Source of the DNA: an uncultured Gammaproteobacteria bacterium
GTDB taxonomy: Bacteria > Patescibacteriota > Patescibacteriia > CAZSQN01
Direction of reading: 5' to 3'
Assembly: GCA_964609095.1 (NCBI GenBank)
Contig: CAZSQN010000001.1
Span: 86,117 to 150,116, forward strand
DNA: 64,000 bases
The position numbers and the translations under genes are program-made. This document shows positions 5,872-54,133 of this stretch, in pieces; within the stretch, counting starts at the first letter, position 1; each line of letters starts with the position of its first letter. Below the pieces are notes generated by a model. The model had not been told where the DNA came from and ran no database searches. It saw only the letters and a list, made by a program, of their open reading frames with translations.

Positions 5872-7017
5872 TTGTCAACCTTCACGGCCCTTGATATACT
5901 TTATTATATGATGCGAGTAGGCATTGACGCTCGGTTTTGGGGAACAAACACAGGCATAGGCCGTTATGTGGAAGAACTGGTAAAGGCAATGTTAAAGGAA
6001 GCGGCCGGAGCGGAATTTGTTCTTTTTTTAAGGAAAAATAACTGGGATATGGCTCCGGAGGGGGCGGAGCGCGTTTTGGCCGACTGCCGCTGGTACACCT
6101 TGGGCGAGCAGATTTTATTGCCGCGAATCTTTGACGGCGCGAAGTGCGATTTAATCCATTTTCCGCATTGGAATGTTCCGGTCGGAGTGCGCACGCCTTA
6201 TGTTTTGACGATTCACGACCTGCTCCTTCTTCGGCATCCGTCGGCGCGCGCCACTCTTTTAGGACCGTTGCGTTACGCCGTCAAGAAGATGGGTTTTAAC
6301 TTTGTTTTGCGCAAAGCCGTCTCTAATGCCCGCGCCATTATTTCGCCGTCGGAATTCTCGGCGCGGCGCGTCAGAGAGCATTTTCCAGGTTCGGCTTCAA
6401 AGATTAAGGTTGTTTACGAAGGCCTTCCCGCTCTTAAAAGCGGTCCGGAATTTTCCTCGCTGGAGCAAAGGGGCGCGCGGAAACCATACCTGTTTTATGT
6501 CGGCAACGCTTATCCGCACAAAAATTTGGAAACGCTGATTGCGGCCGCGATTAAATTGCGCGAGAGCGGAGAAGAAATCAATCTGGTTTTAGCCGGAAGA
6601 AAAGACGCTTTTTACGAACGTTTGGAAGATAAATTCGGTTCGGAGAAATCTGTGATTTTTTTTGGCGAGGCAACGGACGAAGAACTGGACACGTTGTACA
6701 AAAATGCCGAGGCCTATGTATTTCCGTCTTTGGAAGAAGGTTTTGGTCTGCCCGGGCTTGAAGCCGTGGCAAGAGGGATTCCGGTTATAGCTTCGGAACG
6801 CGGCGCCTTGCCGGAAATATATGGAAATGCCGCCCTGTATTTTAATCCTGATAAAGTCGGCGAGCTTGCCGGCGCCATTGCCAAAATAAGGCGCGAGAGC
6901 GAGTTTAGAATCAAAATGATTAGAGAGGGCAATGAACGGGTTAAAAGATTTCAGTGGGAAGAAGCGGCTCGCCAAACATTTGATATTTATAAAAACGCGT
7001 TAAATTTCAAACCCTGA
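5872..7017 (+). CDS. glycosyltransferase family 4
   Basis: GT4 motifs (GIGRYVEEL; VFPSLEEGFGLPGLEAVARGIPVIASERGALPE). In-frame TTG at 5872 sits 5 nt after a perfect SD AAGGAGGA (5859-5866). Alternative ATG at 5908. Confidence 0.7.
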   Translation: MSTFTALDILYYMMRVGIDARFWGTNTGIGRYVEELVKAMLKEAAGAEFVLFLRKNNWDMAPEGAERVLADCRWYTLGEQILLPRIFDGAKCDLIHFPHWNVPVGVRTPYVLTIHDLLLLRHPSARATLLGPLRYAVKKMGFNFVLRKAVSNARAIISPSEFSARRVREHFPGSASKIKVVYEGLPALKSGPEFSSLEQRGARKPYLFYVGNAYPHKNLETLIAAAIKLRESGEEINLVLAGRKDAFYERLEDKFGSEKSVIFFGEATDEELDTLYKNAEAYVFPSLEEGFGLPGLEAVARGIPVIASERGALPEIYGNAALYFNPDKVGELAGAIAKIRRESEFRIKMIREGNERVKRFQWEEAARQTFDIYKNALNFKP

Positions 7018-7021
7018 TTTT

Positions 7022-9568
7022 GTGAAGGAAACAAATAAAAAAAAGAACCAGCGGCTTGAGATAGTGGAAGAGGATGAGGCAATAACTCTTAAATTTGATT
7101 TGGGCCCACATGAGAGGTCGCCTCATCTTTTGGATCTTGATTCCATTTCGACCGCGGCGTTTCAGAGCCGCGATGAGCAGGTTAAGGATTTCTGGACGGG
7201 AGCAGTCAAGCCGCCAAGGCCCGGCAGAATGAAAAGATTTATCGCCAATCTGCGCGGCGTTTTTGAAAATGAGCGCGAGCACCGCTTGCTTGCGCCGGGT
7301 AAGCCGCGATTATTGGCCGATCTCTTCGATGAGCTTTTAATCTGCAATCTGTTCGAGATAATATTTATCGGAGCGCGGGCTGTTTTTACAGCTTATTTTT
7401 CGGCGTTGGTTTTTTGCGCCGGGCTTTTGCGCCGGGAAGACAAAATCCAGCCGGAGGCCTCGAGATTGGCAAAAGCGGAAAGTTTTGGGAAAGCGCGCGT
7501 TCCGGTTTTTCTGACCAAGGTTCCGCTTTTACCCGGACTTAGCAGCCGGGTTGTTCCTTTGGCGCGAAAAGATTTAAGTTTTTTGCGTTTTTCCCCTCCG
7601 GTCAGATTTGAACGGGCGCTTGTTTCTTTCGTGCTTCTGGCTTTTGTTTTTATTCTGCCTTTGCGCGTTGCTTCAACCTACGGCGAGGTAAACCGGACGA
7701 AATCAGTTCTGCTTCAAAAAAGCGTGGCCGCTTTTGAGTCGTTGAATAAATCCTGGAGCCAAGTGGGAAATCTTGAGGCCGCGGCCGCCGCTTTTGAAGA
7801 TGCCAGCGAAGGATTTGACGCCGTCCTAAAAGATATTGAAGAAACGCATCAAATTTTGCAGAAAGCCGCCTCTGTTCTGCCCGAAGGAGAACAGCTTGAT
7901 GCCGGAAAATCATTGCTTCTCGCCGGTTCTTTGGTGGCCGCTTCGGCAGAAGTGCTGGCCGGACGGCTCGCCGCTTTAAACGATTCTGCCCTGCCTCCGG
8001 CGGAGCGCGTGCATCAGCTTGGAGAAAGTTTGAATACGGCTTTGCCCTTGTTGCAGAACGCCAGAGAAAAGCTTGATTCAATTTCGGTTGAAGTGATACC
8101 TGCGGAATACAGGAACGGCGCCGCCGCGGCCATGGCTCTGTTGGATCAAGTGATAGAAGGAGTGGAAAGCTCGGAAGCGGCCACTTCTGTTTTAGAATAT
8201 ATCCTTGGCAGGACTGAACCGAGAAGATTTCTTGTTGTTTTTCAAAATAATGCGGAATTGCGGCCGACGGGCGGGTTTATCGGCTCGTTTGCCGAAATTG
8301 ATTTTGCCGCCGGCGATATTACCCGCATGTGGATGCCGGGCGGCGGCTCGTATGAGCTCCAGGGAGGTTTGCGGGCAACAGTCATTCCGCCCGAACCGCT
8401 GCAGCTTATTGCTTCGCGCTGGGAGTTCCAGGACGCCAACTGGTTTCCGGATTTCCCGTCTTCGGCCAGAAAGTTAATGTGGTTTTATGAAAAATCCGGC
8501 GGTCCGACCGTTGACGGCGTTATCGCGCTCACTACTTCCGTGGTTCAAAAATTATTGCAGGTGACCGGGCCGATTGAGATGCCCGAATACGGCAAGATAA
8601 TCACCGCGGATAATTTCTGGCTGGAGACGCAGAAGGCCGTGGAATTGGAATACGATAAGGAGGAAAACAGGCCCAAACAGTTTTTAGCCGATTTGGCGCC
8701 CAAGCTTATCGCGCGCCTTAAAAGCAATGACCCGAAAACATTTTTTGCTTTAGCCAAAGCTCTGGCCGAAACAATCGGAGAGAAACATTTTCAGATTTAT
8801 CTGCGGGACCAATCCGCGCAGGAGAAAATCACGCATTTGGGCTGGGGAGGCGAATGGCGGCCAACTTCCGGCGATTCCTTGGCTATTGTCAATACCAATG
8901 TGGCCGGCGGCAAAACAGATGGAATCATAAGCGAGCACATCAAGCATTCCGCCAAAGTTGATGAGGACGGCTCGACAGTGGTAACGGTTGAGGTAACACG
9001 CGCTCATCAAGGAGTCAAGAATGAACTTTTTAGAGGCGTGCGCAATGTTGATTACGTGAGAATTTATGTTCCCGAGGGTTCTACCCTGCTTGAATCAAGC
9101 GGCTGGAGAAAGCCGGTCCAGTCCCTTTTTAATATTATTGACGAGAACGCTAATCCGGATACGGATCTGATCTCGGCCGATGCCGGCTCGGCCGAAGAAC
9201 CGGCAACGGGCACTAAAATCAGCCATGAATTCGGCAGAACTGTTTTTGGAAATTGGATTATGGTTGATCCCGGAGAGACCGTCACTTACAAGCTGGCATA
9301 CCGTCTGCCGCAGAAGATAACTTTTAGCCAGGCAGAGAACGGATTTTTGGAAAAAATTGGTTTGCGCGAAAAGGATATTCCGCAAGCGTCTTACAGTTTA
9401 TTGCTTTTGAAGCAGGCCGGAACCGTCAATACCACTTTTGAACATTCGGTGGAGCTGCCGGCTGATTGGCAAGTTATTTGGCGCAACGCTCCGGAAGCCG
9501 GCAAGTCCCTGCCTTTGGACAGAGACAGGTTTTTCGGGGTTGTGGCCACGCCGGCCCACGGTTTATGA
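7022..9568 (+). CDS. DUF4012-like large membrane-anchored protein
   Basis: 848 aa, N-terminal TM segment, conserved LVVFQNNAELRPTGGFIGSFAEIDF block recalled from DUF4012 proteins that pair with DUF11-type surface proteins in CPR genomes. GTG start; 4-bp overlap with the next gene. Confidence 0.6.
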   Translation: MKETNKKKNQRLEIVEEDEAITLKFDLGPHERSPHLLDLDSISTAAFQSRDEQVKDFWTGAVKPPRPGRMKRFIANLRGVFENEREHRLLAPGKPRLLADLFDELLICNLFEIIFIGARAVFTAYFSALVFCAGLLRREDKIQPEASRLAKAESFGKARVPVFLTKVPLLPGLSSRVVPLARKDLSFLRFSPPVRFERALVSFVLLAFVFILPLRVASTYGEVNRTKSVLLQKSVAAFESLNKSWSQVGNLEAAAAAFEDASEGFDAVLKDIEETHQILQKAASVLPEGEQLDAGKSLLLAGSLVAASAEVLAGRLAALNDSALPPAERVHQLGESLNTALPLLQNAREKLDSISVEVIPAEYRNGAAAAMALLDQVIEGVESSEAATSVLEYILGRTEPRRFLVVFQNNAELRPTGGFIGSFAEIDFAAGDITRMWMPGGGSYELQGGLRATVIPPEPLQLIASRWEFQDANWFPDFPSSARKLMWFYEKSGGPTVDGVIALTTSVVQKLLQVTGPIEMPEYGKIITADNFWLETQKAVELEYDKEENRPKQFLADLAPKLIARLKSNDPKTFFALAKALAETIGEKHFQIYLRDQSAQEKITHLGWGGEWRPTSGDSLAIVNTNVAGGKTDGIISEHIKHSAKVDEDGSTVVTVEVTRAHQGVKNELFRGVRNVDYVRIYVPEGSTLLESSGWRKPVQSLFNIIDENANPDTDLISADAGSAEEPATGTKISHEFGRTVFGNWIMVDPGETVTYKLAYRLPQKITFSQAENGFLEKIGLREKDIPQASYSLLLLKQAGTVNTTFEHSVELPADWQVIWRNAPEAGKSLPLDRDRFFGVVATPAHGL

Positions 9569-12929: not shown

Positions 12930-13931
12930 TCAAGCAGAGCGATGATACGGGCGCAGGCGCTTTAAGAGTGAATATATTTTATAAGAAATCGGCCGCAGAG
13001 GCAACTCTATTGCCTCCGGCAGAGCGACGATCTCTCCGCCTCCGCCCGAGGCGGATCCGCCTTGGGTGGAAAAGCCCTTCTTAAATCTAGTAATTCCCGC
13101 CCAGGCGTGACTTGATTCTTGATTCTTGATTCTTGATTCTAAAGGCGGTGCTATGCCCCAAAAATCATAAAAACCATATCCGGCAAATTTTGCGTTTTTC
13201 ATTATTTCCCAATGCAAAAGATACGGCGCCATCAAGTTTCTTTTTTCGTTGGAGGATGCGCCATGGAGGTAAGTGGCAGTATTCCCAAAGAAATTTATAA
13301 TAGCCGCGGCCAGCGGTTCGTTGTTTTGGTAGGCGACAAAGAGCTTAGTATTCGGCAGAATCCTAAGCATCTCGCGATAATAAGATTCCGAGTGAGCGGA
13401 GAATTTATCCCTCGCTGTTGTTTCTTTCATTAATTTTACAAAATCATCTGCAGGCGCGTTTTCTTTTATAGCGACGCCGTGGCGTTCTGCCAGGCGGATA
13501 TTATATCGTGTTTTTTCATGCATTTCAGCGAGCAGGGCTTCTTCATGTTTGCGGATATCAACGATTAGCGTGTGCTGGGGCTGCCTTGATTTAGCTTTTA
13601 GCTTATAGCTTATAGCTTTTAGCCCGTTATTAGATTCAAGGTGTAAAAATATTCCTTTTGTTTTTTTAAGATCGGAAATAATTGTTTCCATAATTCTTGA
13701 TTCTTGATTCTTGATTCCAATAGGTCCGCGATACAGGTTCCATCCAAACATACCGCCCGGCAGCGGATGTGAAACAATTTGCGCAAGCGCGTCCGGAGTT
13801 TCGTACCGTCGTACCTCGCGCCCGATTGATTTTTGAAACTCGCCCCAGCTCCATGATTGCAAAAATAGTCCCGATCGAGATCGGGAGCTATCATTTAATA
13901 TAAATTTATCCCAAGAGCTTTTGTCTGCCAT
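12930..13931 (-). CDS. FemAB-family peptidyltransferase (peptidoglycan interpeptide bridge formation)
   Basis: FemAB/FemX hallmarks (FLQSWSWGEFQK, YRGP, RYNIRLAERHGV, YLHGASSNEKRNLMAPYLLHWEIMKNAKFAGYGFYDFWGI, RFKKGF). Contains three in-frame heptamer-repeat insertions (see findings). Confidence 0.75.
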   Translation of the reverse strand: MADKSSWDKFILNDSSRSRSGLFLQSWSWGEFQKSIGREVRRYETPDALAQIVSHPLPGGMFGWNLYRGPIGIKNQESRIMETIISDLKKTKGIFLHLESNNGLKAISYKLKAKSRQPQHTLIVDIRKHEEALLAEMHEKTRYNIRLAERHGVAIKENAPADDFVKLMKETTARDKFSAHSESYYREMLRILPNTKLFVAYQNNEPLAAAIINFFGNTATYLHGASSNEKRNLMAPYLLHWEIMKNAKFAGYGFYDFWGIAPPLESRIKNQESSHAWAGITRFKKGFSTQGGSASGGGGEIVALPEAIELPLRPISYKIYSLLKRLRPYHRSA

Positions 13932-13955
13932 ATATTAGACATCTTCACAGGATTA

Positions 13956-13984
13956 TTGACAAAAAGCAAGATTTGTGATAAGTT
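13956..13984 (+). promoter_or_regulatory. sigma70-like promoter (TTGACA-N17-TAAGTT) plus conserved ~60-nt leader, copy A
   Basis: TTGACA at 13956-13961. The whole 13950-14043 block is ~85% identical to 22073-22170. Confidence 0.55.
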
Positions 13985-14040
13985 AACTTAATCGTTCCTT
14001 AACTTCAGAATAAGGAAAATCAAGCCAAAAAGGAGCGCAA

Positions 14041-14676
14041 ATGGACAGGAAGCAGGCAAAAACGCAGACAGGCGCATCGGACACTTCCGGCACTTTGGCC
14101 ATAGCTCGCCGCAACTGGTTCATGAACTGGTACCGCGAGCTTGGTTTTTCCCTTCAGATACCAGTTCCTCCTGTTCCAGATGAGGAGTACAAGAGTAGAA
14201 AGGAACAGGGTCAAGACCTGTTCTATCGTCCTCCAACCTCCGAGGTCTCTTACGAGGCCTTGATGAAGGCGGTTGGACAGGGCAAATGTTGGACTGTCGT
14301 GAACGGGAGCGACAGGAAGAAGATCAAGTGGGAACCTACCCAAACCGGCTACTGGTTCTGGGCCGAAGTTTCCCAAGATTGTCCCCGCCTGGGCACATCC
14401 TGGCATGGGCTCACCCGCACCAAAGAGCAGGGACTGGACTTGCTTTCCTTGCTTTCATTGGAAGAGTATGCGCTTGTCTGGTGGGCGCACAAAGCCGCAA
14501 CCAACGCCATACTTGATACCGGAAATTGGTCTTGGCTTCGTACCCGTTTCAGGGATAGCGCTTTGCATGCCAGCGACTGCTATGGCAGGGTCTGCGTGGA
14601 CGGGTGGGATGCGATCAGCATTGCGTACCCTTATGTCAACATGGGCGGCCGCTCCGCGGAAGTGGTCAAGATGTAA
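14041..14676 (+). CDS. hypothetical Trp-rich protein (GC-rich, foreign composition)
   Basis: 211 aa; SD AAAAAGGAG 8 nt upstream; 13 Trp; markedly higher GC than flanking genes. No recognised domain. Confidence 0.55.
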   Translation: MDRKQAKTQTGASDTSGTLAIARRNWFMNWYRELGFSLQIPVPPVPDEEYKSRKEQGQDLFYRPPTSEVSYEALMKAVGQGKCWTVVNGSDRKKIKWEPTQTGYWFWAEVSQDCPRLGTSWHGLTRTKEQGLDLLSLLSLEEYALVWWAHKAATNAILDTGNWSWLRTRFRDSALHASDCYGRVCVDGWDAISIAYPYVNMGGRSAEVVKM

Positions 14677-15390
14677 CTTGAGTCCTGATTGCTTGTTCCC
14701 CCAGTACTAGAACTTTCGAGTTCAGTACGGGGCTTCGCTTTTGCCCTCTTGTACCTTGTCCCGTTAGAAGCCACATTCTAAACGGGTACAACTTTAAAAT
14801 TTCGTAGGAGCTTTCTATGTTTAGAGCTTCTAACGGGACTCGTGTCCCTTCAACTTTGATTGAAGGGACTTTTAATTTATGTTGGGACTGTCGCCAAATA
14901 CCATTTCTACTGCAATTCTCAAATTTCAGCTGCAAATTTCTAAAAACTCCTCCGCTTATACTGCGTATAAACATCGTCGTTTTTATAAATTTTCGCTTTG
15001 AAATTTGAGAATTTCGTGACGAAAGCGCATTTGGCGACAGTCCCAGAATAGCGGAAAAATTTTTAGTTTCAAAAAATACGATTAAATACAATACTGCAAT
15101 ACTGGGAAGTATTGCAGTATTGTATTTCGGATGGTATTGATGGTCATCGGATGGTTGTCATCGGATGGTGTTGATGGTCAGTTGTCTCATGTGTCGGCAG
15201 GATTATGAGGGCAGGATATTGATACGACAAATTGATCCCGCCCCCGAGAATCGGGGGCCCGCACATGCCTCCAAAATTAAATAATAACAAAAATCAGCTA
15301 TAGCTTAAAATTGTTATTTTAAATATTTATGACATGGGCTTTTTTTTACAACAATTTCGCATCGGCCGCATATTTTTGTTGTAAGAGGGG

Positions 15391-18540: not shown

Positions 18541-21500
18541 TCATTTTTTAAGTACGCCGAGCCAGAGCGCTTCTTCGTCCAGTTCCATTTCCTTAAAATG
18601 TTCCGTCTGAATTTTCCCAAGAATTATTTGGGCGGCTTTGGTGTCCGCCTTTAGTTTATCGGAAAAATTTTCAAAAACGGCTAAGATGGCGGGACCGTCG
18701 GTTTCGTAGGCAAGCGCGATTTGGTCTTTGGGAGTCAGGCCGGCGGCTTTGCGCAGGTCGTTGATATGCCTTGATATTTCGCGGACCATTCCCTCCTGCC
18801 GCAGTTCCGGACTGATAACCGTGTCTAAGGCGATACCAAGCCCGTCGGTTTCCGTAAAGATAATTTCTTTTACGTTGATTTCGTTTTTAAGAATTTCCAA
18901 AAGTTCCGTATCCGGTTTTTTCTTTGTTTTTATCTCCAGCTTTGAGAGAATCTGGCGCACGGGAATTTTGGCCGCGGCGCGCTCTTCAAGAGCCATAGAA
19001 GCAAGGCGGCGGATTGTTTCCATTTCTTCAAGCAGAGTATCGTCTATCAGGCGAGCCTCGTAGTTTGGCCAGTCCTCCAAGTGCACGGAGGCCTTGTCGC
19101 GTTCCGTCTTTAGTTCAAGAAAAAGCGATTCGCTTAAAAACGGGACAAACGGCGCCATAATCTTAGAGACGGATATAAGAACCGTTCTTAACGTCGCGGC
19201 GGCTGATTCGTCTCCGGACTTAAATCTCTCCCGGCTTCTTCGCACATACCAGGTTGAAAGATCGGTGATAAAGTCGGATATGGCTCTGCAGGCCTCCGTT
19301 GGCCGATAGTTGTCTAAATCGGCGGTAACATTTTTGATCAGGCGATGAAGCTTGGAGACGATCCATTTGTCCAGCGCGTGAGCTGATTTGGCCTGCCTGG
19401 AGCCGTTTTTGGGCAAATAGGTTTTTCCAAAAATATGGACATTCCACAGAATTATAAATGTTTTTTTCACCATTTCATCCAAAATATTTTCGTCAAAACG
19501 TTTACTCTCCCCGGGATGATTTAGGGAATACATATACCAGCGGACGGCATCGGCGCCGTATTTGTTAATCACTTCCCACGGGTCAACGACATTGCCTTTG
19601 GATTTGGACATTTTTTGTCCAGCCGCATCCAGCACGTGTCCTAAAGAGACCACATTTTTATATGGCTTGCCCGTCTCCAGGGCGGTGGCGACGGCGAGAA
19701 GCGTGTAAAACCAGCCGCGGGTCTGGTCAATGGCCTCGGCAATGTAGTCGGCTGGAAATGATTCGCCTTTGTCTATTTTATTTTTGTTTTCAAACGGATA
19801 ATGCCATTGCGCAAAGGGCATGGCGCCGGAGTCAAACCAGACATCGGCCACCTCCGCCACCCGCGTCATAACTTTGCCGCACTTTTCACAATCAAGAACG
19901 ATAGAGTCAATGTAAGGGCGGTGCAAGTCAGCCAGGCCGTCGGCATTTCTTGGCAGGGTTTTGAGCTTAAGCGAGCGGACTTCGCCTGTTTTAATATAAT
20001 CGCCGGCGTAAAATCTCTGGACGATTTCGCGGTCTCCATAGCCGCGCAGCGCGCCTTCCAGAACCCAGAAGGGGTCGCCGTGTCCGACAAGCAGAATTTT
20101 TTTATCCCCGTATTTTTCTTCAAGTTCGTGGATAAGCCCCATATGGCGGCGTAGCACGTCGGCCAATGTCTCTCCTCCCTGCGGCGCACGGCTCCACCGC
20201 TCAAATTCTCCAAGCGGGAATTTGGACTTGAATTCGGCCACCGGCAGGCCGTCGTCTTCGCCAAATTCCATTTCGCGCAGGCGATGGTCGTAATTGATAT
20301 GGATGTTTAATTCGCGGGAAACAATCTCCGCCGTTTCTTTGGCGCGGGGGAAATCAGAAGCGATGATGAGGTCAATTTTTTCTTTTTTTAATTTTTTGGC
20401 CGCGGCTCCGGCTTCGGCCCGGCCCTGCTCAGTTAAATGGAAATCGCCGTGAATGTTAGAAGAGGCGATGTCGGCGACATTGGTATCCGCTTGGCCGTGG
20501 CGAAGGAAATAATAAGTGTTGCCCGAAGCCGTCTCCGGGAATTCTTCCAATCCGCCGATAACCTTTTTGTTGCCGCAGGAGCAGGTCCAAATGGGTAGCG
20601 GCGTGCCCCAGTAGCGTTCGCGGGAAAATGCCCAATCCTTAACTCCGCGGAGCCATTCGCCAAATCGCCCCTCCTTTATATATTCCGGAACCCAGTTTAT
20701 TTCGCTGTTGGCTTTAATCAGCTTGTCTTGAAGCTCGGACATCTTGATAAACCAGCTTAGGCGGGCGAAATAAAGGAGAGGCGTGTTGCATCTCCAGCAA
20801 AAAGGATATTCATGCTTGATTTCGCCGGATTTATACAAGAGCCCGCGATTTTGCAACTCGTTAATAATTTCCGGGTCGGCTGTTTTTACGAATTTTCCGG
20901 CCCAGGGACTGACTTCCTTGATAAATTTTCCTTCTTCGTCAACGGTTATGATTATTGGAAGTTTGTTTGCTTTGGCCGCAATCAAATCGTCCTCGCCAAA
21001 AGCCGGAGCGATATGCACCATGCCCGTGCCGTCCTCGGTAGAAACAAAATCAGCCGCAATAACGCGATGCGCCTTCTCAATTGGTTTAACGAAAGAATAA
21101 AGCGGCTCGTATTCCATGCCCGCAAGTTCGCGGCCCTTTTTAATCTCCATAATGTCATATTCTCCTTCCAGGACTTCCAGCCGGGATTTGGCCAAAATCA
21201 TAATTTCTTTTTCTGTTTTTACTTTGACATAATCAATATCTTCGCCAACCGCCAGAGCCACGTTCGCGGGCAGCGTCCATGGGGTTGTTGTCCAGACGAG
21301 GAAGAAGGCGGGCAGTTTGTCTTTGCCCTTAATTTTGAACCTTATATATATGGAAGGGTCTGATGTTTCTTTATATCCCTGCGCCACCTCATGCGAGGAA
21401 AGGGCGGTGCCGCAGCGGGCGCAATAAGGCACGATTTTAAAGTCCTGAAACAAAAGCTTCTTTTTCCATACTTCCTTGATAATCCACCACAAGGATTCAA

Positions 21501-21969
21501 TGTAAGGGGTTTCGTAAGTGATATAAGGATGGTCTAAATCAACCCAAAAGCCGACGCGCTTGGTCAGGCGCACCCATTCGTCAAGGTATTTCCAGACGGA
21601 TTCTTTGCACTTTTGGTTAAAGTAGGCGATGGATTCTTCGGGCGAGTCCTTAAGCTCTTCTATCTGCGGTTTGCCGGAAATGCCCAATTCTTTTTCCACT
21701 TGGAGCTCTACCGGCAGCCCATGCGTGTCCCAGCCGGCTTTGCGCTCTACCCTATAGCCAGCCATGGTCTTGTAGCGGGGGATTAAATCTTTAAAAGCGC
21801 GCGCTTCCACATGGTGGATGCCGGGCCTGCCGTTGGCGGTCGGAGGGCCTTCAAAAAACACAAAATTGCCCTTGGGCGCCTCTTTGGCCAAAGTTTGTTC
21901 AAAGATTTTTTCCTTTTCCCAGTATTCAAGCATTTCTTCTTCTTTTTTAGGAAATATTGATTTATTCAT
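18541..21969 (-). CDS. ileS: isoleucyl-tRNA synthetase with inserted histidine-phosphatase (PGAM-like) domain
   Basis: Class I motifs (PPTANGRPGIHHV; KMSKSKGN). CP1/editing and anticodon-binding regions are typical IleRS. About 200 aa (YYFLRHGQADTN ... LLVGHGDPFWVL) are inserted between the WTCSCG and DLHRPYID zinc-knuckle segments. Start ATG 21969 (MNKSIF); upstream in-frame TTG-initiated extension is unlikely. Confidence 0.85.
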   Translation of the reverse strand: MNKSIFPKKEEEMLEYWEKEKIFEQTLAKEAPKGNFVFFEGPPTANGRPGIHHVEARAFKDLIPRYKTMAGYRVERKAGWDTHGLPVELQVEKELGISGKPQIEELKDSPEESIAYFNQKCKESVWKYLDEWVRLTKRVGFWVDLDHPYITYETPYIESLWWIIKEVWKKKLLFQDFKIVPYCARCGTALSSHEVAQGYKETSDPSIYIRFKIKGKDKLPAFFLVWTTTPWTLPANVALAVGEDIDYVKVKTEKEIMILAKSRLEVLEGEYDIMEIKKGRELAGMEYEPLYSFVKPIEKAHRVIAADFVSTEDGTGMVHIAPAFGEDDLIAAKANKLPIIITVDEEGKFIKEVSPWAGKFVKTADPEIINELQNRGLLYKSGEIKHEYPFCWRCNTPLLYFARLSWFIKMSELQDKLIKANSEINWVPEYIKEGRFGEWLRGVKDWAFSRERYWGTPLPIWTCSCGNKKVIGGLEEFPETASGNTYYFLRHGQADTNVADIASSNIHGDFHLTEQGRAEAGAAAKKLKKEKIDLIIASDFPRAKETAEIVSRELNIHINYDHRLREMEFGEDDGLPVAEFKSKFPLGEFERWSRAPQGGETLADVLRRHMGLIHELEEKYGDKKILLVGHGDPFWVLEGALRGYGDREIVQRFYAGDYIKTGEVRSLKLKTLPRNADGLADLHRPYIDSIVLDCEKCGKVMTRVAEVADVWFDSGAMPFAQWHYPFENKNKIDKGESFPADYIAEAIDQTRGWFYTLLAVATALETGKPYKNVVSLGHVLDAAGQKMSKSKGNVVDPWEVINKYGADAVRWYMYSLNHPGESKRFDENILDEMVKKTFIILWNVHIFGKTYLPKNGSRQAKSAHALDKWIVSKLHRLIKNVTADLDNYRPTEACRAISDFITDLSTWYVRRSRERFKSGDESAAATLRTVLISVSKIMAPFVPFLSESLFLELKTERDKASVHLEDWPNYEARLIDDTLLEEMETIRRLASMALEERAAAKIPVRQILSKLEIKTKKKPDTELLEILKNEINVKEIIFTETDGLGIALDTVISPELRQEGMVREISRHINDLRKAAGLTPKDQIALAYETDGPAILAVFENFSDKLKADTKAAQIILGKIQTEHFKEMELDEEALWLGVLKK

Positions 21970-22077
21970 AACACAGATACGAATAACATCCGAATGAGAT
22001 ACGAATGACGCGAATATTCGGATTATTTGGATGCATTCGTATATAATTCGTATTTCTGTTGTATTGTCGCAAAAATA

Positions 22078-22106
22078 TTGACAAAAAGCAAGATTTGTGA
22101 TATTCT
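22078..22106 (+). promoter_or_regulatory. sigma70-like promoter plus conserved leader, copy B
   Basis: TTGACAAAAAGCAAGATTTGTGATA identical to copy A. Leader is conserved up to the SD. Confidence 0.55.
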
Positions 22107-22167
22107 GACTTATTCGTTCCTTAACCTCAAAACAGGGAAAATCAAACAAATAAGGAGGGTAAGAAAG

Positions 22168-22623
22168 ATGGCGCTAAAAGATTCCCCCGGGATCAGCCTC
22201 CCATTGTGGTTTTTCACATTTAGTAGGGCTGGAAATTCAGAGGACACAGAACATGCACGGCTTTTTGCAAATGGTTTTTGCTTTTGGTCCAACACAAACG
22301 ATACCCCGGAGGACATTGAACGATGCAAAACAATGGCCAAGGAAGAGGAAGCAGTGATATACGTTGTTAGTGTCGAATTTGCATCTGTCCTTAAAGAGCT
22401 TGAGCATAGGGTTTCTGAAGAGGCGAGACTGACAAGAAATCTTTTTTTGTACACCAAAGCTTGGAAAGAAAATCAGGCTAAATGGTGTGAAATTAAACAA
22501 CGAATCAAGATTGTTGCGCAAGATGTCGAAGTATGTGTATGCCAAACTGCTTATTCTCGTGGCCCAATGGGTTCCCTGTTGGAGGGATGGGTTTCTATCT
22601 GGGTAAAGGGGCTTTGCCCATAA
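22168..22623 (+). CDS. hypothetical protein (151 aa), foreign codon usage
   Basis: SD AAGGAGGG 7 nt upstream. Cys/Trp-rich. Followed by terminator 22661-22690. No recognised domain. Confidence 0.55.
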   Translation: MALKDSPGISLPLWFFTFSRAGNSEDTEHARLFANGFCFWSNTNDTPEDIERCKTMAKEEEAVIYVVSVEFASVLKELEHRVSEEARLTRNLFLYTKAWKENQAKWCEIKQRIKIVAQDVEVCVCQTAYSRGPMGSLLEGWVSIWVKGLCP

Positions 22624-22660: not shown

Positions 22661-22690
22661 TCCCCCGAGGCATATGCCGAGGGGGTTTTG
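22661..22690 (+). terminator. rho-independent terminator
   Basis: cccccgagg-catatg-ccgaggggg + TTTTG. Confidence 0.7.
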
Positions 22691-23266: not shown

Positions 23267-23343
23267 AGGGTAAAGGGGACAGGGTATAGGGTATAGTTTT
23301 TAAAAACTATTTTCTAAACCCTAAACCCTAAACCCTAAACCCT

Positions 23344-23976
23344 ATGGTAAAGGTAATCCCTGCAATTCTGGCAAAGACAAAAGAGGAGTTTGAAAGCAAG
23401 GTTAAGACCGCGGCTGATTTTGCGAGCGAAATCCAGCTGGATATAATGGACGGGAAATTCGTGTCCAATATCACCTGGGGCGCGCCTGAAGAAATAAAAA
23501 AAATGAACCTGCCGCCATTTGAAGCGCATTTAATGATCCAAAATCCGGAGCGGGAAGTTAGCAAATGGGCAGAAGCCGGAGCTAAACGAATCATTGCCCA
23601 TATTGAAGCCATAACCGACCTTCCATTATATATAGAAGCGGTGAAAAAAGCGGGATGCGGGGCCGGAGTGGCCATAAACCCGGAAACATCGGTTGAAGCC
23701 GTCTCTGATTTTCTTTCCAATCTTGACGCCGTGTTGGTGATGGGCGTGAACCCCGGCTTTAGCGGGCAGGAATTTAATCCAACGGCGTTAATAAAAGTTG
23801 CGGAATTAAGAAAATTGAATCAGAATATATCTATAGAAGTTGATGGGGGCGTTTCTTTTGTCAACGCAAAAGAATTGGCCGAAGCCGGGGCTGATGGATT
23901 AGTTGTTGCCAACGCTATTTTTAAATCCGATACGCCAAAAGCGGCTTATGAAAAGCTTTTAACCGCGATTAAATAA
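23344..23976 (+). CDS. rpe: ribulose-phosphate 3-epimerase
   Basis: RPE motifs (IPAILAKT, QLDIMDGKFV, AHLMI, VMGVNPGFSGQ). Confidence 0.8.
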   Translation: MVKVIPAILAKTKEEFESKVKTAADFASEIQLDIMDGKFVSNITWGAPEEIKKMNLPPFEAHLMIQNPEREVSKWAEAGAKRIIAHIEAITDLPLYIEAVKKAGCGAGVAINPETSVEAVSDFLSNLDAVLVMGVNPGFSGQEFNPTALIKVAELRKLNQNISIEVDGGVSFVNAKELAEAGADGLVVANAIFKSDTPKAAYEKLLTAIK

Positions 23977-24236: not shown

Positions 24237-24322
24237 GATTGACAAATTAAAAATGAGGGCATTAAGCCCTTGTTTTTATTTTGGTATAATTCTTAACAGC
24301 TAACAGCTAACAGCTAACAGCG

Positions 24323-25183
24323 ATGCCTCACATCCATGACAAAAAAGTAAAAGAATTGGAAGACAAAGCGAACAGGGTTCGCCAGCTTATTATTGAAAGC
24401 TTGGTGGAAGCCAAGAGCGGGCATTCTGCCGGACCTTTAGGCATGGCCGATATTTTTGCCGCGTTTTATTTTCATCTTCTCCATCACAAGCCAAAGAATC
24501 CCAATTGGGCGGACCGCGACCGGCTGATACTTTCTAACGGCCATATTTGTCCAGTGCGTTACGCAACTATGGCTTTGGCCGGATATTTTCCCATAAAAGA
24601 GCTAAAGACGCTGCGCAAATTCGGTACTCGCCTTCAGGGGCATCCGGAGCGTCTGCGCCTGCCGGGAGTAGAAACAACTTCCGGCCCTTTGGGCTCCGGG
24701 CTTGGACAAGCGGCCGGCCTTGCTTATGCCAGCCGGATGGATGGCAAAAAATGGCGGACATACTGCCTGATGAGCGACGCCGAACAAGCGGCCGGCGTGC
24801 ACTATGAAGCAATGCTTTTTGCCGGACGAAACAAATTATCAAATCTTACCGGCGTAATTGACAGGAACAATATCCAGATTGACGGCGTGACCGAAGATAT
24901 TATGCCCTTGGAGCCGCTGCGCGCCAAATATGAGGCCTGCAATTGGGCCGTGTTGGAAGTCGGCGGGCATAACATTGAACAGTTTGTGGACGCGGTTGAG
25001 GAGGCAAAATCCATTTATGAAAAACCGACGGTGATAATAGCGCACACCATTCCCGGACGAGGCGTTTCCTTTATGGAAAAAAAGTACGAATGGCACGGCA
25101 TTCCGCCCAAACCGGAAGAAGCGGAAATCGCGTTAAAAGAATTAAGAACATTGGGAGGAAAAATAAAAAGCGAACACGAATAA
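24323..25183 (+). CDS. transketolase, N-terminal (thiamine-diphosphate-binding) subunit
   Basis: Split-transketolase N-terminal subunit motifs (GHSAGPLGMADI, LSNGHICPVRYA, GSGLGQAAGLAYA). Confidence 0.85.
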   Translation: MPHIHDKKVKELEDKANRVRQLIIESLVEAKSGHSAGPLGMADIFAAFYFHLLHHKPKNPNWADRDRLILSNGHICPVRYATMALAGYFPIKELKTLRKFGTRLQGHPERLRLPGVETTSGPLGSGLGQAAGLAYASRMDGKKWRTYCLMSDAEQAAGVHYEAMLFAGRNKLSNLTGVIDRNNIQIDGVTEDIMPLEPLRAKYEACNWAVLEVGGHNIEQFVDAVEEAKSIYEKPTVIIAHTIPGRGVSFMEKKYEWHGIPPKPEEAEIALKELRTLGGKIKSEHE

Positions 25184-28900: not shown

Positions 28901-28966
28901 GGACTATGGTAAAGGGTATAGAAATTCACTAAACCCTAAACCCTAAACCCTAAACCCTAAACCCTA

Positions 28967-29935
28967 ATGTACGACATAATTACAATCGGCGCGGCAACCA
29001 AAGACGTTTTTTTGGAAAGCGGCAGTTTTAAATTTATCAAATCGCCGGAGTTTGCCGGAGGCACGGGCGAATGCCTTTCATTTGGTTCTAAAAATGAAGT
29101 CAGGAATATCTTTTTTTCAACCGGCGGCGGAGCCACTAATGCCGCCGTCACGTTTTCCCGCCTGGGCCTCTCTGTCGCGGCTCTTACCAGAGTGGGAAGA
29201 GATTCTTTCGGAGATGATATTATTGCCGCTTTAAAAAACGACAATGTTTCCGTAAAGCTGATTCAGCGCGATCCCGCGCTTAAAACCGCTTACTCAACCT
29301 TGCTTATGCAGGGGCCCGGCGAGAGAACGGTGCTTGTTTATCGCGGCTCGTCAGCAAAAATTAACGCGCGGGAGTTGCGGCAGGTGAGGACAAAGTGGAT
29401 TTACGTGACTTCTCTCGGAGGCCAGATTGATTTGCTTCGGAAAATATGGAGCTGGGCTCGTAAAAATAAAGTAAAAATCGCCTGGAATCCCGGAGGAGAA
29501 GAGCTAAAGTCGGGTTTGGAAAAACTTCTGCCTTTTATAAAACAGTGCGAAGTGTTCAATGTTAATCGCGAAGAAGCCGCTAGGGTTACCGGTTGCGGCT
29601 GGAGAGACAGGGAATGTTTGTTTGCCAATCTCTGCGGCAAGGCCACCTATGTTTTGATCACGGACGGAGAGCGCGGGGCGTATTGTTGCGGCGCCGGTGA
29701 GCGTTTTTTCGCTTCGTCGCTTGGCACCAAACCGAAAAATACGACAGGCGCCGGCGACGCCTTTGGCTCCGCCTTTGTGGCCGGCCTTATTTTAAGAAAC
29801 AGTGTTGATTTTGCTCTGCGGCTCGCCATTTTAAACGCCGACTCTGTTATCAGGCAGATGGGGGCTAAGACGGGAATTTTAAAAAAGTTGCCAAGCAAGG
29901 CAGTTTTATCTAAAATAGAAATAAAGAAACTGTAA
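28967..29935 (+). CDS. PfkB-family carbohydrate kinase (second copy)
   Basis: MYDIITIGAATKDVF N-terminus and TGAGDAFGSAF C-terminal motif. Confidence 0.75.
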   Translation: MYDIITIGAATKDVFLESGSFKFIKSPEFAGGTGECLSFGSKNEVRNIFFSTGGGATNAAVTFSRLGLSVAALTRVGRDSFGDDIIAALKNDNVSVKLIQRDPALKTAYSTLLMQGPGERTVLVYRGSSAKINARELRQVRTKWIYVTSLGGQIDLLRKIWSWARKNKVKIAWNPGGEELKSGLEKLLPFIKQCEVFNVNREEAARVTGCGWRDRECLFANLCGKATYVLITDGERGAYCCGAGERFFASSLGTKPKNTTGAGDAFGSAFVAGLILRNSVDFALRLAILNADSVIRQMGAKTGILKKLPSKAVLSKIEIKKL

Positions 29936-32352: not shown

Positions 32353-32426
32353 GGGCCATTAGCTTAATGGCAGAGCACCCGGTTTGCATCCGGGAGATGA
32401 GAGTTCGATTCTCTCATGGTCCACCA
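32353..32426 (+). tRNA. tRNA-Ala (anticodon TGC), CCA encoded
   Basis: GGGCCATTAGCTTAATGGCAGAGCACCCGGTTTGCATCCGGGAGATGAGAGTTCGATTCTCTCATGGTCCACCA. Confidence 0.85.
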
Positions 32427-33920: not shown

Positions 33921-34409
33921 AGAATTGCGTGATTGAATTGCACCGCACTTACACCGACAATTTCTAAAATCTCTCATCGGCTCTTGCGCCTTTGGCGCAA
34001 TCCAAACTTTGTTTGGGAACCGCCGACTTTCGGCGGGAATGCTTTTGGCGGAATTCAAAACCCCCTGGAATTTCTTGGCGGAAACCAATGCCGAGGGGCG
34101 AAGCCCCGAGGCAACTTCTTCGGCAAATCTGAAATGGTGGTGTTTGTTTGAAAAAGTCAGAACCCATTTTGCGGAGAACCCTGAAAACTAATGCGGACTC
34201 GGCAGGGCGAAACATTTGACTGGGGATATGGATTCGCCCTGCCTCGGCTGATTTCCCGCCCGCAGGAGGGGTCTGGGGAGGAATGCGGGCGGGTTTCGGA
34301 CTGGGGGTTTTCGGAAAAAAATTCTCGGCTACAAAATTGATAAAAGTCCTCATATCTGTTAGTATAATACTACGAACGAAATCAAGCAACAGTTAAATGT
34401 TATCAATAT

Positions 34410-34613
34410 ATGGAAAGTAATCAACTGGGACTGAAAATAAGGAAATTGCGACAGAAACTAGGGCTTTCTCAAGACGATTTTGCTCGTAAGGCGGATGTTG
34501 CCTATACAACGCTTACCAAAATTGAAACTGGTGTTATTAAAAAGCCTTCTGTATTTGTTGTGAGCAAAATCGCCAAAGTCCTAGATGTCGCAATTGAGGA
34601 ATTGATAAAATAA
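34410..34613 (+). CDS. XRE-family helix-turn-helix transcriptional regulator
   Basis: LGLKIRKLRQKLGLSQDDFARKADVAYTTLTKIETG is a canonical HTH_XRE. Confidence 0.8.
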   Translation: MESNQLGLKIRKLRQKLGLSQDDFARKADVAYTTLTKIETGVIKKPSVFVVSKIAKVLDVAIEELIK

Positions 34614-38587: not shown

Positions 38588-38679
38588 CTTAGAGCTTGTG
38601 GCTCGTGGCTCGTGGCTCGTGGCTTGTGGCTTTTAGAAGTTTTAACTATAAGCTAAAAGCTAACAGCTAAAAGCTATTT

Positions 38680-41977: not shown

Positions 41978-42700
41978 ATGAGCATTTACACGACAATTTT
42001 TTACCAGCCGATGTTTAACGCCCTGATCTGGTTTTATAATGTGGTCCCAGGGAAAGACATCGGTCTGGCGATTGTTCTTCTTACGGCGCTGCTTAAGATT
42101 TTGCTTTGGCCGTTTTCCATCCAATCTTTGAAATCGCAAAAGGCGATGACCGAGCTTCAGCCCAAGCTCAAGGAGCTTCAGGAAAAATATAAAGGGAAAA
42201 AAGAGGAGCTGGCCAAAGCCACGATGCTGCTTTATTCAAAAGAAAAGGTAAGCCCCTTTTCTTCCTGTCTGCCGCTTTTGGTTCAGCTTCCTTTTCTTAT
42301 AGCGCTCTATCAAGTGCTTCGCGACGGGCTGGCTTCAAAAAAGTTTGAACTGCTTTATTCTTTTATCAGCAATCCCGGGCAGGTTGACCCGACCTTTTTT
42401 GGGATCTTGAATTTGGCGGCCCCGAATTTTATTTTGGCGCTCTTAGCGGGAGGCGCTCAATTTTTGCAATCAAAAATGCTTTCCACCAGGCGCCCGCCGC
42501 GCTCCGTGGCCGGCAAAGAGGGAAGCAAGGACGAAGATACGATGGCGAGGATGAATAAGCAGATGACTTATATGATGCCGGCGATTACGGTTGTGATTTC
42601 CGCCGGGCTTCCGGCCGGACTCGCGCTTTACTGGCTTATTTCAAGTTTGCTCACCGTTGGCCAGCAGGCGCTCTTCTTAAGAACTCGCCATAAGCCGTAA
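41978..42700 (+). CDS. yidC: membrane protein insertase YidC/Oxa1 (short form)
   Basis: YidC core (LLKILLWPF, MTELQPKLKELQEKYK, MLLYSKEKVSPFSSCLPLLVQLPFLIALYQVL). Confidence 0.8.
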   Translation: MSIYTTIFYQPMFNALIWFYNVVPGKDIGLAIVLLTALLKILLWPFSIQSLKSQKAMTELQPKLKELQEKYKGKKEELAKATMLLYSKEKVSPFSSCLPLLVQLPFLIALYQVLRDGLASKKFELLYSFISNPGQVDPTFFGILNLAAPNFILALLAGGAQFLQSKMLSTRRPPRSVAGKEGSKDEDTMARMNKQMTYMMPAITVVISAGLPAGLALYWLISSLLTVGQQALFLRTRHKP

Positions 42701-42738
42701 GCCATAAGCATACAGCTTAAAGCTTACGGCAAAATATT

Positions 42739-45754: not shown

Positions 45755-46042
45755 ATGAATGTACGTCCTCTTGGAGACAGAGTGATTGTGCGGCCTATTA
45801 AGGAGGAAGAGGCCACCAAGGCCGGTATTATTCTCCCCGATACCGCCAAGGAAAAGCCGGAACGCGGCGAAGTTATCGCCGTTGGTCCTGGCAAAATGCT
45901 TGAAAACGGAACGCGCGTGGCGATTTCCGTTAAAGCGGGAGAGAAAGTATTGTTTAAAAAATACAGCCCTGACGAACTTAAGGTCGAAGGTCAGGAGGTC
46001 TATGTGCTGCGGGAGGAGGATTTACTCGCGGTAATCGAATAG
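45755..46042 (+). CDS. groES: co-chaperonin GroES
   Basis: MNVRPLGDRVIVRP...GIILPDTAKEKP. 95 aa. Confidence 0.9.
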   Translation: MNVRPLGDRVIVRPIKEEEATKAGIILPDTAKEKPERGEVIAVGPGKMLENGTRVAISVKAGEKVLFKKYSPDELKVEGQEVYVLREEDLLAVIE

Positions 46043-46106
46043 CCATAAGCCCTAAGCTATATGCCATAAGCATATAGCTTACAGCCTACGGCTTACAGCC
46101 AACACT

Positions 46107-52562: not shown

Positions 52563-53441
52563 ATGTCTATTCTCTCCTCTAAGAGAATAAAAGAGTTAGT
52601 CGCGGAACTTGGAATATCGCCCCAAAAAACTTTGGGGCAGAATTTTTTAATAGACGAAAATATTTTGCAGAAAATTATTTCCGTCGCCGAACTTACGGAC
52701 AAAGACACTATTTTAGAGATTGGCCCGGGATTGGGAATTTTAACTAAAGAATTAGCCGTTCGCGCGGGTAAAGTGATTGCTATTGAGAAAGACAAAAAGC
52801 TTGTTCATTATCTCCAATCAGCAATGAAGTCACCGCCAAGGCAGGATCCCGCCTTTTCCGCTTTAAATTTTAAAGAGGCGGCGGGACAATATAACAATAT
52901 AACAATCGTGGAGGAAGATTTTTTAAAAATTGATTTATCTAAATTGGGTTTGGGCAAGAGTTATAAGATTGTCGCCAATTTGCCGTATTCAATAACCTCT
53001 GACGCCATAAGAAAGATAATGGAGTCCGATCCGGCGCCAAGCGCGGCAGTGCTGATGGTGCAAAAAGAGGTGGCTGAACGCATCTGCGCCAAACCAGGGG
53101 ATATGAGCTTACTGGCGTTGTCCGTCCAATATTATGGAGTTCCAAGTTTAATGTTTCAGGTCTCAAGAGGAAGTTTTTGGCCAGTGCCCAAAGTTGACAG
53201 CGCGGTTATAAAAATACTTATAGACAAAAAACGCGACTTAAAAGTCGCAGAAGATTTTTTTAGAATCGCGCGCATCGGATTTTCCTCGCCCAGGAAACAA
53301 TTGCAAAATAATTTATCCTCGGGGCTGCATACTTCAAAAGAAAAAACAATTGAACTTTTGAATCGCGCCAAAATCAACCCCAAAGCCCGTCCGGAGGAGC
53401 TGGGAGTCGGCGATTGGGAAAGATTGGCGCAAATGGATTGA
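52563..53441 (+). CDS. rsmA: 16S rRNA (adenine1518/1519-N6)-dimethyltransferase
   Basis: LGQNFLIDENIL, EIGPGLGILT, NLPYSI motifs. Antisense ORF 53156..53818(-) is spurious. Confidence 0.85.
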   Translation: MSILSSKRIKELVAELGISPQKTLGQNFLIDENILQKIISVAELTDKDTILEIGPGLGILTKELAVRAGKVIAIEKDKKLVHYLQSAMKSPPRQDPAFSALNFKEAAGQYNNITIVEEDFLKIDLSKLGLGKSYKIVANLPYSITSDAIRKIMESDPAPSAAVLMVQKEVAERICAKPGDMSLLALSVQYYGVPSLMFQVSRGSFWPVPKVDSAVIKILIDKKRDLKVAEDFFRIARIGFSSPRKQLQNNLSSGLHTSKEKTIELLNRAKINPKARPEELGVGDWERLAQMD

Positions 53442-53527
53442 CGCCAGAAGTTTCTTATAGTATCTTGATTTAACCGTTGGTTCTTTAAATTCAAACAAGA
53501 TAAACCCAACAAACAAGGAGTTAAAAG

Positions 53528-53986
53528 ATGGCTGATAGCGGCTCTGAAAGATTTACTGTTTTCGTAAACTACGACGATCCCCGTTGGGGTAAGTTTGATA
53601 GTGGGCATTATGATTGTCACTTGCATCCAGATTTTGCCGTCGCGCATTTTCCAAGCAATGATCATGGTCTGGCTAAAGTGATCATGTGCTATGTAACTCC
53701 CGATCCCGCGAATCTGACAGATGCTAGAAAAGCTTTGAGTGAGATTAAACAACTTGGACTTCGTCGTCCTGACAGAGCAGAAGCCGAAATGTTTTTTGAA
53801 CAGTATCCCGAGGAGCAAAACAAGTTTCCAATCATTGCTTTGTGTGGATCAATTGTTGGCGATGGCGTTGATAGGCGCGTCGCTTATATCAGCGCACACA
53901 ATGACGAGTTTGCTGTAGGTGAAGTTAAGCTCGGACGCGACGGGTTTCTTAAGTATAGATTTCTCGCCGTCCGCAAGTCCGTCTAA
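53528..53986 (+). CDS. hypothetical protein (152 aa), foreign composition
   Basis: SD CAAGGAG upstream. His/Cys/Asp-rich. No domain recognised. Confidence 0.5.
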   Translation: MADSGSERFTVFVNYDDPRWGKFDSGHYDCHLHPDFAVAHFPSNDHGLAKVIMCYVTPDPANLTDARKALSEIKQLGLRRPDRAEAEMFFEQYPEEQNKFPIIALCGSIVGDGVDRRVAYISAHNDEFAVGEVKLGRDGFLKYRFLAVRKSV

Positions 53987-54133
53987 ATTCTGCAAAGCAA
54001 AACTTTGGTGGACAAGTAACGTTCTTTGAATTTTCGTGCCCTTCCGGCAAATGTCGGAAGGGTTTTATATTTAACACTCATCTTTTTGTCTTGTTGTTAA
54101 ACATATATGTAATACACCGCCGTCTATTTAAAG

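Follow-up and report, generated by a model that had tools for sequence, protein, structure and literature searches.

Diversity-generating retroelements (DGRs) are, to our knowledge, the only means found in nature of targeting hypermutation to particular proteins, and bacteria of the Candidate Phyla Radiation (CPR) carry them especially often. Prototype targets are Mtd of Bordetella phage BPP-1 and TvpA of Treponema denticola. The defining signature of DGRs is an adenine-specific mismatch between a template repeat and the variable region of a target gene, and multiple targets of one DGR are normally linked by their 3' variable region or its recognition sequence. We are not aware of any report of a promoter and leader that DGR targets share at their 5' ends, and target-gene expression in the DGRs of CPR bacteria is, as far as we know, essentially unstudied. 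Outside DGRs, contingency and antigenic-variation gene families keep a common promoter and 5' untranslated region while the coding body diverges or is swapped, and leaders that sequester the ribosome-binding site (RBS) are known from fourU or ROSE-type RNA thermometers and from anti-Shine-Dalgarno leaders. Here, we analyze a repeated 5' element in a 64,000-nucleotide (nt) stretch of DNA from an uncultured bacterium of the Patescibacteriota (contig CAZSQN010000001.1, positions 86,117 to 150,116; hereafter the window, numbered from its first letter), in which three copies of a predicted promoter and leader precede three small genes, A, B and C. We establish the anatomy of this element, the homology of its copies and the identity of protein families A and C, to which genes A and C belong, as DGR variable proteins. 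With a probability of about 0.6, we consider the element a 5' expression module that DGR variable-protein genes have inherited and recombined in a Candidatus Uhrbacteria (CPR) lineage.

In a repeat search of the window, copies A (13945-14040) and B (22067-22162) form a 96-nt direct repeat with 81% identity in an ungapped comparison and a mean column identity of 84% in a MAFFT alignment. An original prediction, made from the sequence alone, had placed this repeat correctly, at about 85% identity. A 25-mer, TTGACAAAAAGCAAGATTTGTGATA, spanning the -35 box and the spacer, is exactly conserved between the two copies; allowing up to three mismatches, it has no third match in the window, and it gave matches in 0 of 100 shuffles. 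The same holds for a 32-nt core of the leader, which has no further match in the window and none in the shuffles. Similarity between copies A and B begins about 11 nt 5' of the -35 box and ends at most about 5 nt past the ATG. A local duplication that includes coding sequence, which the original prediction had named as the outcome that would speak against it, does not apply because the similarity stops at the start codon. Each of the two copies sits between divergently oriented genes: copy A is bounded by a FemAB-family gene (12930-13931, minus strand) and gene A, and copy B by the gene for isoleucyl-tRNA synthetase (18541-21969, minus strand) and gene B, with rpiB located 3' of gene B.

The two copies originally recognized are real, but the window contains three. 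A third, more diverged copy, C (53438-53527), had been overlooked upstream of gene C; the search for further copies that had been advised thus yielded one in the window and additional ones in other genomes. Window positions 53468-53510 were matched by an nhmmer leader profile built from eight copies, and inspection of the sequence revealed a full, diverged cassette around this match. Local alignment of copies C and B gave a score of 24, whereas none of 1000 shuffles exceeded 16 (z = 10.6); the corresponding z-scores of copy C were 9.4 with the leader of a homologous locus, L034, and 6.7 with copy A. Copies A and B are about 8 kb apart, copies B and C 31 kb.

Judged from the sequence, each copy is predicted to comprise a sigma-70 promoter, a weakly structured leader of about 55-60 nt that starts with a CGTTCYTT box, and a strong RBS, all on the plus strand. 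Copy A combines a TTGACA -35 box (13956-13961), a 17-nt spacer containing TGTG and a TAAGTT -10 box (13979-13984) with the 5' box CGTTCCTT (13993-14000) and the RBS AAGGAG (14030-14035). In copy B (cassette up to gene B, 22067-22167), the corresponding elements are TTGACA (22078-22083), TATTCT (22101-22106), CGTTCCTT (22115-22122) and AAGGAGG (22152-22158). The -35 box of copy C, TTGACG (53438-53443), overlaps the stop codon of rsmA (rRNA dimethylase) and is followed by a 17-nt spacer, TATCTT (53461-53466), the box GGTTCTTT (53479-53486), AAGGAG (53515-53520) and the start codon at 53528. By consensus match, the predicted promoters are of the sigma-70 type, TTGACA-17-TATTCT in copy B (10/12 matches plus TG), TTGACA-17-TAAGTT in copy A and TTGACG-17-TATCTT in copy C. 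Copy B is nearer to the consensus of the family than copy A.

Gene A (14041-14676, plus strand) encodes a protein of 211 residues whose variable residues are displayed on a fold of the C-type-lectin (CLec/FGE-like) type; its variable region spans about 14545-14662. It has 29 homologues, and all those with a source name come from Candidatus Uhrbacteria. Exact protein matches assign the window itself to a metagenome-assembled genome of Candidatus Uhrbacteria, GCA_016181485.1. Gene A represents a short form, lacking an N-terminal extension of about 45 residues found in most homologues. Alignments of this family, family A, show a conserved body, a hypervariable C-terminus and a terminal conserved GGRxAEVVK motif. 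In two homologous loci, L009 and L012, bAvd and an RVT_1 reverse transcriptase (RT) are encoded behind the family-A gene; in L010, an RT is. An Asn-rich open reading frame (ORF) of the template repeat in L010 matches window positions 14545-14670 (tblastn, 2e-7), and the window variable region (14545-14662) is 73-75% identical to the template repeats of L009 and L010. Within these loci, mismatches between the template repeat and its own variable region fall at template adenines in 17/17 cases (L009) and 12/12 cases (L010). By homology, gene A is thus a member of a DGR variable-protein family, which does not imply that it is active as a target in the window.

Downstream of gene A, the 3' flank (14698-14881, plus strand) contains a TTCG-loop hairpin (about 14699-14732) and a conserved hairpin element (14842-14881). 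The latter is 85-91% identical over 32-42 nt to elements in L009, L010, L014, L015 and L033, and the orthologues carry it roughly 20-50 nt 3' of the stop codon. Between gene A and ruvA, we also observed a 163-nt imperfect palindrome (14883-15045) and a 44-nt perfect hairpin (15084-15127), at the place where relatives hold the template repeat, Avd and RT; these palindromes may be a scar of DGR loss.

Gene C (53528-53986, plus strand) encodes a 152-residue protein of family C, which is unrelated in sequence to family A. In an alignment with its 10 homologues, the C-terminal approximately 25 residues are hypervariable ahead of a conserved FLAVRK end. One homologue, P0038 in locus L035, has bAvd and RVT_1 genes downstream, and its variable region (6459-6592) is 86% identical to a template repeat (6983-7116), with 18 of the 19 mismatches at template adenines. 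Given the Avd and RT genes and the adenine-specific repeat pair at L035, family C therefore constitutes a second family of DGR targets. Pooling families A and C (L009, L010 and L035), 47 of 48 mismatches fall at template adenines. In related bacteria from groundwater, small genes of this kind are hypermutated by a DGR. Gene C is followed by an intrinsic terminator, read from the sequence at 54039-54066 (plus strand; CCCTTCCG...CGGAAGGG, then TTTT). The 90%-identity clusters of genes A and C hold one sequence each, and no variants of the variable regions were seen, which, coming from an exact-identity look-up, is weak evidence.

Neither an RT nor Avd nor a template repeat was found for gene A, B or C in the 64-kb window, and a tblastn comparison of the RT and Avd proteins of L009, L010 and L012 with the window gave a best E value of 0.27. 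The three genes would therefore be remote or orphaned targets. Searches of genes A, B and C with PADLOC, PHROGs and Pfam returned sub-threshold noise only.

Gene B (22168-22623, plus strand; 151 residues) is an ORFan that only the shared cassette links to genes A and C. Searches of 5.8e9 clustered proteins and of 1.84e9 representatives, an exhaustive HMMER search among them, returned gene B itself and no homologue, and its 90%-identity cluster adds only an alternative annotation with a TTG start. A single-sequence AlphaFold2 model was uninformative (pLDDT 35.8). As originally proposed, the proteins encoded by genes A and B are unrelated (hhalign probability 0.2%; tblastn E > 0.7), and hhalign probabilities of gene B with families A and C do not exceed 0.2%. 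We also considered gene B as a decayed family-A or family-C gene and rejected this idea, as tblastn in all frames, blastn and hhalign were negative. A likeness of N-termini, MALKDSPGISL compared to MGHRDTKGIHL, was likewise dismissed, being no better than random local matches.

The claim that genes A and B are compositionally foreign was overstated; gene A has 54-56% GC and gene B about 41%, against a local background ranging from about 38% to 58% (mostly 43-53%). Of the strong terminators assigned to both genes, that of gene B is canonical, with a CCCCC...GGGGG hairpin followed by TTTT (22662-22689, plus strand; read from the sequence), whereas gene A is followed by hairpins without a clean T-run.

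The architecture of copy A recurs in other genomes, where the promoter and leader stand ahead of family-A genes on eight further contigs. The family-A genes of the orthologous loci L009, L014, L015, L033 and L034 are preceded by the same promoter and leader, in the form TTGACA, 17-nt spacer, TAYTCT, YTATTCGYTCTTTGTAACCTCAAAAY, an A/C-rich stretch and AAGGAG; in L010 and L032, an extra 5' hairpin is inserted ahead of the box. L014 is a syntenic ortholog with FemAB upstream, and 29 nt around its -35 box (from 5' of the box to mid-spacer) are identical to copy A. The cassette has thus been kept across species in which the proteins are 55-67% identical. Copy B is 77% identical to the leader of L015 over 106 nt, through position +5 relative to the ATG, and it agrees with the foreign leaders of L015 and L026 at positions where copy A differs (TATTCT, CCTCAAAAC and GAAAGATG). 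It therefore did not arise from copy A by recent copying. L026, a metagenome contig, carries the full cassette in front of a hybrid protein that joins the approximately 45-residue N-terminal domain of the long family-A forms to a family-C body.

L026 was also the only full copy found in a pattern scan of a metagenome collection, and a corresponding scan of a 596-Gb genome collection, which does not contain the source genome, gave no true copy. Two matches from the genome collection were rejected, a Parcubacteria pilin promoter that fitted only the forced part of the pattern and a chance match. From the metagenome scan, L022 (by eye, ribosomal protein S16), L027 (by eye, CsrA), L023/L025 and L024 were discarded as having only a generic strong promoter and TTCGTTC..TTAAC, and L028-L031 look like chance matches. 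Partial likeness of this sort, TTCGTTC..TTAAC behind a consensus promoter and nothing more, is seen at several CPR promoters. In viral contigs, the DNA pattern gave four chance matches without a promoter, and the family-A protein gave none. As a separate observation, L025 (2467-3131; also L023) holds two tandem small paralogous genes, encoding 72 and 61 residues with the shared motif FITP..C..ED.I.I.D, each with its own cassette-like promoter and leader (TTGACAAAA..TTTGTG.TA..TATTCGTTCATT).

Of all leader elements, the box is conserved best when families A and C are compared. Of 25 strong promoters in the window and the homologue loci, 11 have the motif G[CT]TC[CT]TT no more than 35 nt from the -10 box, with 0.4 expected, and 10 of these 11 promoters precede family-A or family-C genes or gene B. 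We additionally noted ATTTCGTTCGT, a sequence similar to the 5' box of the cassette, behind two promoters (953-1010; 34379-34424, minus strand), one of which serves the RNase P RNA gene; this organism may use a weaker form of the box more generally near its transcription starts.

The original prediction had attributed the conserved leader to shared post-transcriptional control, and we asked how far the leader RNA bears this out. Searched with Rfam 15, the window contains no match at gathering score; the best E values for copies A and B, at least 0.77 in a search up to E = 10, are noise, and seven homologue loci gave no Rfam match at E up to 0.1. RNAalifold found no consensus pair in 10 leaders, in an alignment that is imperfect around the RBS. 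Minimum free energies range from -4 to -9 kcal/mol, and folding z-scores of eight leaders were -1.15, -0.20, +0.45, -3.2, -0.12, +0.58, -0.87 and +0.06, seven of the eight lying between -1.15 and +0.58; we thus found neither covariation nor excess stability. The leader has no stable or conserved RNA fold, and by eye it is G-poor between the box and the RBS, which may be the expected look of an unstructured, efficiently translated leader. A riboswitch-like or otherwise structured riboregulator, as had been envisaged, is not supported by these data. Double GGA sites of the CsrA type are present in copies A and B; they are not conserved in the orthologues, and this candidate was rejected. Two family-A paralogues of GCA_030688135.1 (L012, 2880-3003, and L013, 2886-3003) have longer leaders of about 120 nt that share a bipartite hairpin with two compensatory base-pair changes and no Rfam match; as only two sequences are involved, conservation of this helix may serve as a lead and is not proof.

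A more specific form of translational control would be sequestration of the RBS, in which the CU-rich box (CGUUCCUU or GUUCUUU) pairs with AAGGAG until temperature, a protein or a small RNA triggers its release, placing the DGR-diversified genes under shared post-transcriptional control. The cassette resembles the RBS-sequestering leaders mentioned above in having a 5' pyrimidine run complementary to the RBS, and a long-range hairpin is predicted in some copies. Indeed, in the minimum-free-energy fold of copy A, CGUUCCUU is paired with AAGGAGCG, and the predicted occlusion of the RBS is 0.93-1.00 in copy A, L034, L026 and L012, a level reached by 1-7% of shuffles. A box-RBS duplex of 5-10 bp is possible in every copy, the box-RBS helix is kept in L012 and L013 with one compensatory and two one-sided changes, and such pairing would fit the box being the leader element conserved best. 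However, occlusion is at the level of shuffles in L009, L014, L033, L015, L010, L013 and copy B, the register of the pairing varies among copies, and any CU-rich run is trivially complementary to an RBS. The complementarity is no stronger than at 32 control genes of the window (Mann-Whitney p = 0.93), an imperfect control in that their upstream regions include GC-richer coding sequence. Taken with the folding z-scores near 0 and the lack of RNAalifold consensus pairs, the shuffles, duplex energies and control genes do not support sequestration overall. Unlike known RBS-sequestering leaders, the cassette thus has no conserved register, covariation, excess stability, above-control complementarity or Rfam match, and we regard this explanation as unlikely.

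The conservation might instead act at the DNA level, with a transcription factor reading the spacer (AAAAGCAAGATTTG) and/or the box past the start site and switching the DGR targets together. The spacer is identical or nearly so in copy A, copy B, L014, L034 and L015 while the proteins are only 55-67% identical, the 29-nt identity between copy A and L014 persists at a protein identity of 62%, and the box, at +5 to +20 from the predicted start, would occupy a typical position of a repressor site. A second type of spacer, TTTTTCTTAAATT, is nevertheless found with the same leader in L009, L033 and L032, and the sole spacer dyad, ACAAA-N8-TTTGT (by eye), is lost in L014 and L015. Moreover, the position and spacing of the box vary, with the inserted hairpins of L010 and L032 lying ahead of it, no candidate regulator gene is linked to any copy, and part of the conserved spacer, TGTG-N-TA, is simply a promoter element, which we take to be the extended -10/-16 element of Gram-positive promoters. 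We hold such control by a DNA-binding factor to be rather improbable. The same estimate applies to the broader proposal that the cassette defines a dedicated regulon of DGR-diversified CPR proteins, operating through the spacer, the CGTTCYTT box and a putative factor. If that doubtful proposal were true, gene B would either represent a kind of DGR target not recognized before or have arisen as a new gene behind a duplicate of a target promoter. At the intact loci L009, L010 and L035, target and template repeat share a strand, with the template repeat on the downstream side; the target promoter could therefore also supply template RNA by read-through, and under such a regulon this would couple expression to mutagenesis.

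Two further explanations are essentially excluded. The original prediction had offered a promoter-capture cassette for horizontally acquired genes, that is, a mobile or capturable promoter such as the outward promoter of a miniature inverted-repeat transposable element or insertion sequence, or an integron-like platform. The cassette does precede three mutually unrelated proteins, one of them an ORFan with a GC content slightly below its surroundings. Nevertheless, a repeat search of the window found no inverted or direct terminal repeats flanking any copy, the similarity is bounded by the promoter and the start codon and not by transposon ends, and copy A occupies a syntenic position in another species (L014). 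The whole-collection scans found the full cassette with DGR target families only, the single metagenome copy standing at a gene of the DGR-target type; they revealed no spread to unrelated contexts at full-length similarity, integrase and transposase genes not having been searched for specifically, and the viral contigs held no match. A mobile unit is thus very improbable. A trivial recent local duplication, or chance similarity without function, is marginally less probable still. Copies A and B, which are the most alike, are separated by only 8 kb, as a local duplication would have it, but copy B resembles the L015 and L026 leaders where copy A differs, the third copy lies 31 kb from copy B, and the unit is conserved among species with 55-67% identical proteins; by chance, zero matches are expected.

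We therefore return to an inherited 5' expression module as the preferred explanation. Such a module would consist of a near-consensus sigma-70 promoter (TTGACA, a 17-nt spacer with a TGTG -16 motif, and TAYTCT), an A/C-rich, G-poor and essentially unstructured leader of about 55-60 nt with the CGTTCYTT box at its start, and a strong RBS. It is older than the species, the region upstream of family-A genes often being better conserved than the coding sequence. It has been joined to different bodies, namely family A, family C, the A/C hybrid of L026 and the ORFan gene B, presumably by gene duplication and subsequent recombination or replacement downstream of the start codon, and would have been retained under purifying selection. 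Its function would be to provide a common, probably strong start of transcription and translation, such that dispersed DGR-diversified genes are co-expressed; the CGTTCYTT box may likewise have a role.

Several points weigh against this explanation. The origin of gene B is not accounted for, as no trace of a family-A or family-C body is present in any frame. The leader copies of family A are related by descent, so that the enrichment of the box motif does not represent independent events. The promoter spacer AAAAGCAAGAT (five loci) and the 5' box are conserved beyond the needs of a plain strong promoter, which hints at a specific regulator outside the proposed explanation. Finally, copy number and RT were covered within the 64-kb window, and the source genome is absent from the scanned collection.

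How the locus compares with described DGRs follows from these data. Like targets of the 'clade 2' DGRs of CPR/Patescibacteria (PMC8144416), the protein of gene A combines a C-type-lectin fold with C-terminal variable residues. Targets without recognizable domains have been described in CPR bacteria, targets have been found to be modular, with intragenic recombination proposed, and remote targets have been noted (PMC8144416). In line with this, genes A and C and their homologues are small and without Pfam domains, and the exchange of a 5' module as proposed here agrees with the published modular DGR targets and domain-less CPR targets (PMC8144416). As at other CPR targets, homologues of genes A and C adjoin an RT and template repeat, mostly also Avd, with mismatches at template adenines. 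In contrast to CPR DGR loci, no RT, Avd or template repeat accompanies genes A, B and C anywhere in the 64 kb, and unlike the known linkage of DGR targets, the common element here is a 5' promoter and leader and not a 3' variable region or recognition sequence. The cassette is also like contingency and antigenic-variation families in placing a 5' unit on divergent bodies, with similarity cut sharply at the start codon or an N-terminal module; unlike in those families, there is no evidence here of silent cassettes, a recombinase or inversion, and it is a retroelement that diversifies the genes, at their 3' ends. CPR bacteria are already known to have DGR targets, and promoters and leaders are nothing unusual, while a 5' module common to dispersed genes of two unrelated target families and to an ORFan appears to be new. 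The word 'promoter' is absent from the DGR survey (PMC8144416), although no literature search aimed at target-gene promoters was made.

Some other features of the window deserve mention. Short tandem runs of heptamers (CTAAACC, AGCTAAC/AGCTAAA, GCCATAA, ATTCTTG and ATACGAA-like) occur at many, mostly intergenic sites (13115-13142, 13693-13720, 21975-22060, 23295-23344, 24298-24324, 28924-28973, 38641-38677, 42687-42730 and 46035-46106). Their sequence differs from site to site, some form inverted pairs, and similar AGCTTTT/AGCTTAA runs lie upstream of the promoter in L015. In the isoleucyl-tRNA synthetase encoded at 18541-21969 (minus strand), an inserted, full histidine-phosphatase (His_Phos_1) domain, residues 487-643, separates the two catalytic halves. 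Two long inverted repeats, 32421-32544/34017-34140 (124 nt, 98% complementarity, delimiting a segment of about 1.5 kb) and 34135-34331/36246-36442 (197 nt, 100% complementarity, segment of about 1.9 kb), adjoin a tRNA gene (32353-32423); the segment between long inverted repeats could be invertible or recently duplicated. A gene for a 182-residue protein with the PaaX central Cas2-like domain (54423-54971) has nearly identical, perfect 29-nt palindromes, CCCTATTACTTGCTATAGCAAGTAATAGG, on both sides (54338-54367 and 55056-55084). A direct repeat of 58 nt with 74% identity (62602-62659/62743-62800) lies beside two tRNA genes (62405-62478 and 62784-62855, minus strand), and its second copy overlaps the end of one of them, which suggests duplicated tRNA flanks.

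Taken together, a unit of promoter and 5' leader in front of mutually unrelated small genes stands as originally described, while its riboswitch-like and promoter-capture interpretations do not; overlooked was the DGR context, genes A and C encoding variable proteins of DGRs and the cassette being the probable ancestral 5' region of their family. Since the riboswitch-like idea is unsupported, mapping of transcription starts and discovery of regulators are to be preferred over hunting for a ligand. No new mechanism is demonstrated by the module, but it is a useful marker of orphan DGR targets and an entry to their regulation. Because it is common to two unrelated target families and an ORFan, it would offer a handle for remote or orphan DGR targets that are missed by RT-centred searches. 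It also opens the question of co-regulation of diversified proteins and would represent a case for new target architectures arising by exchange of a 5' module.

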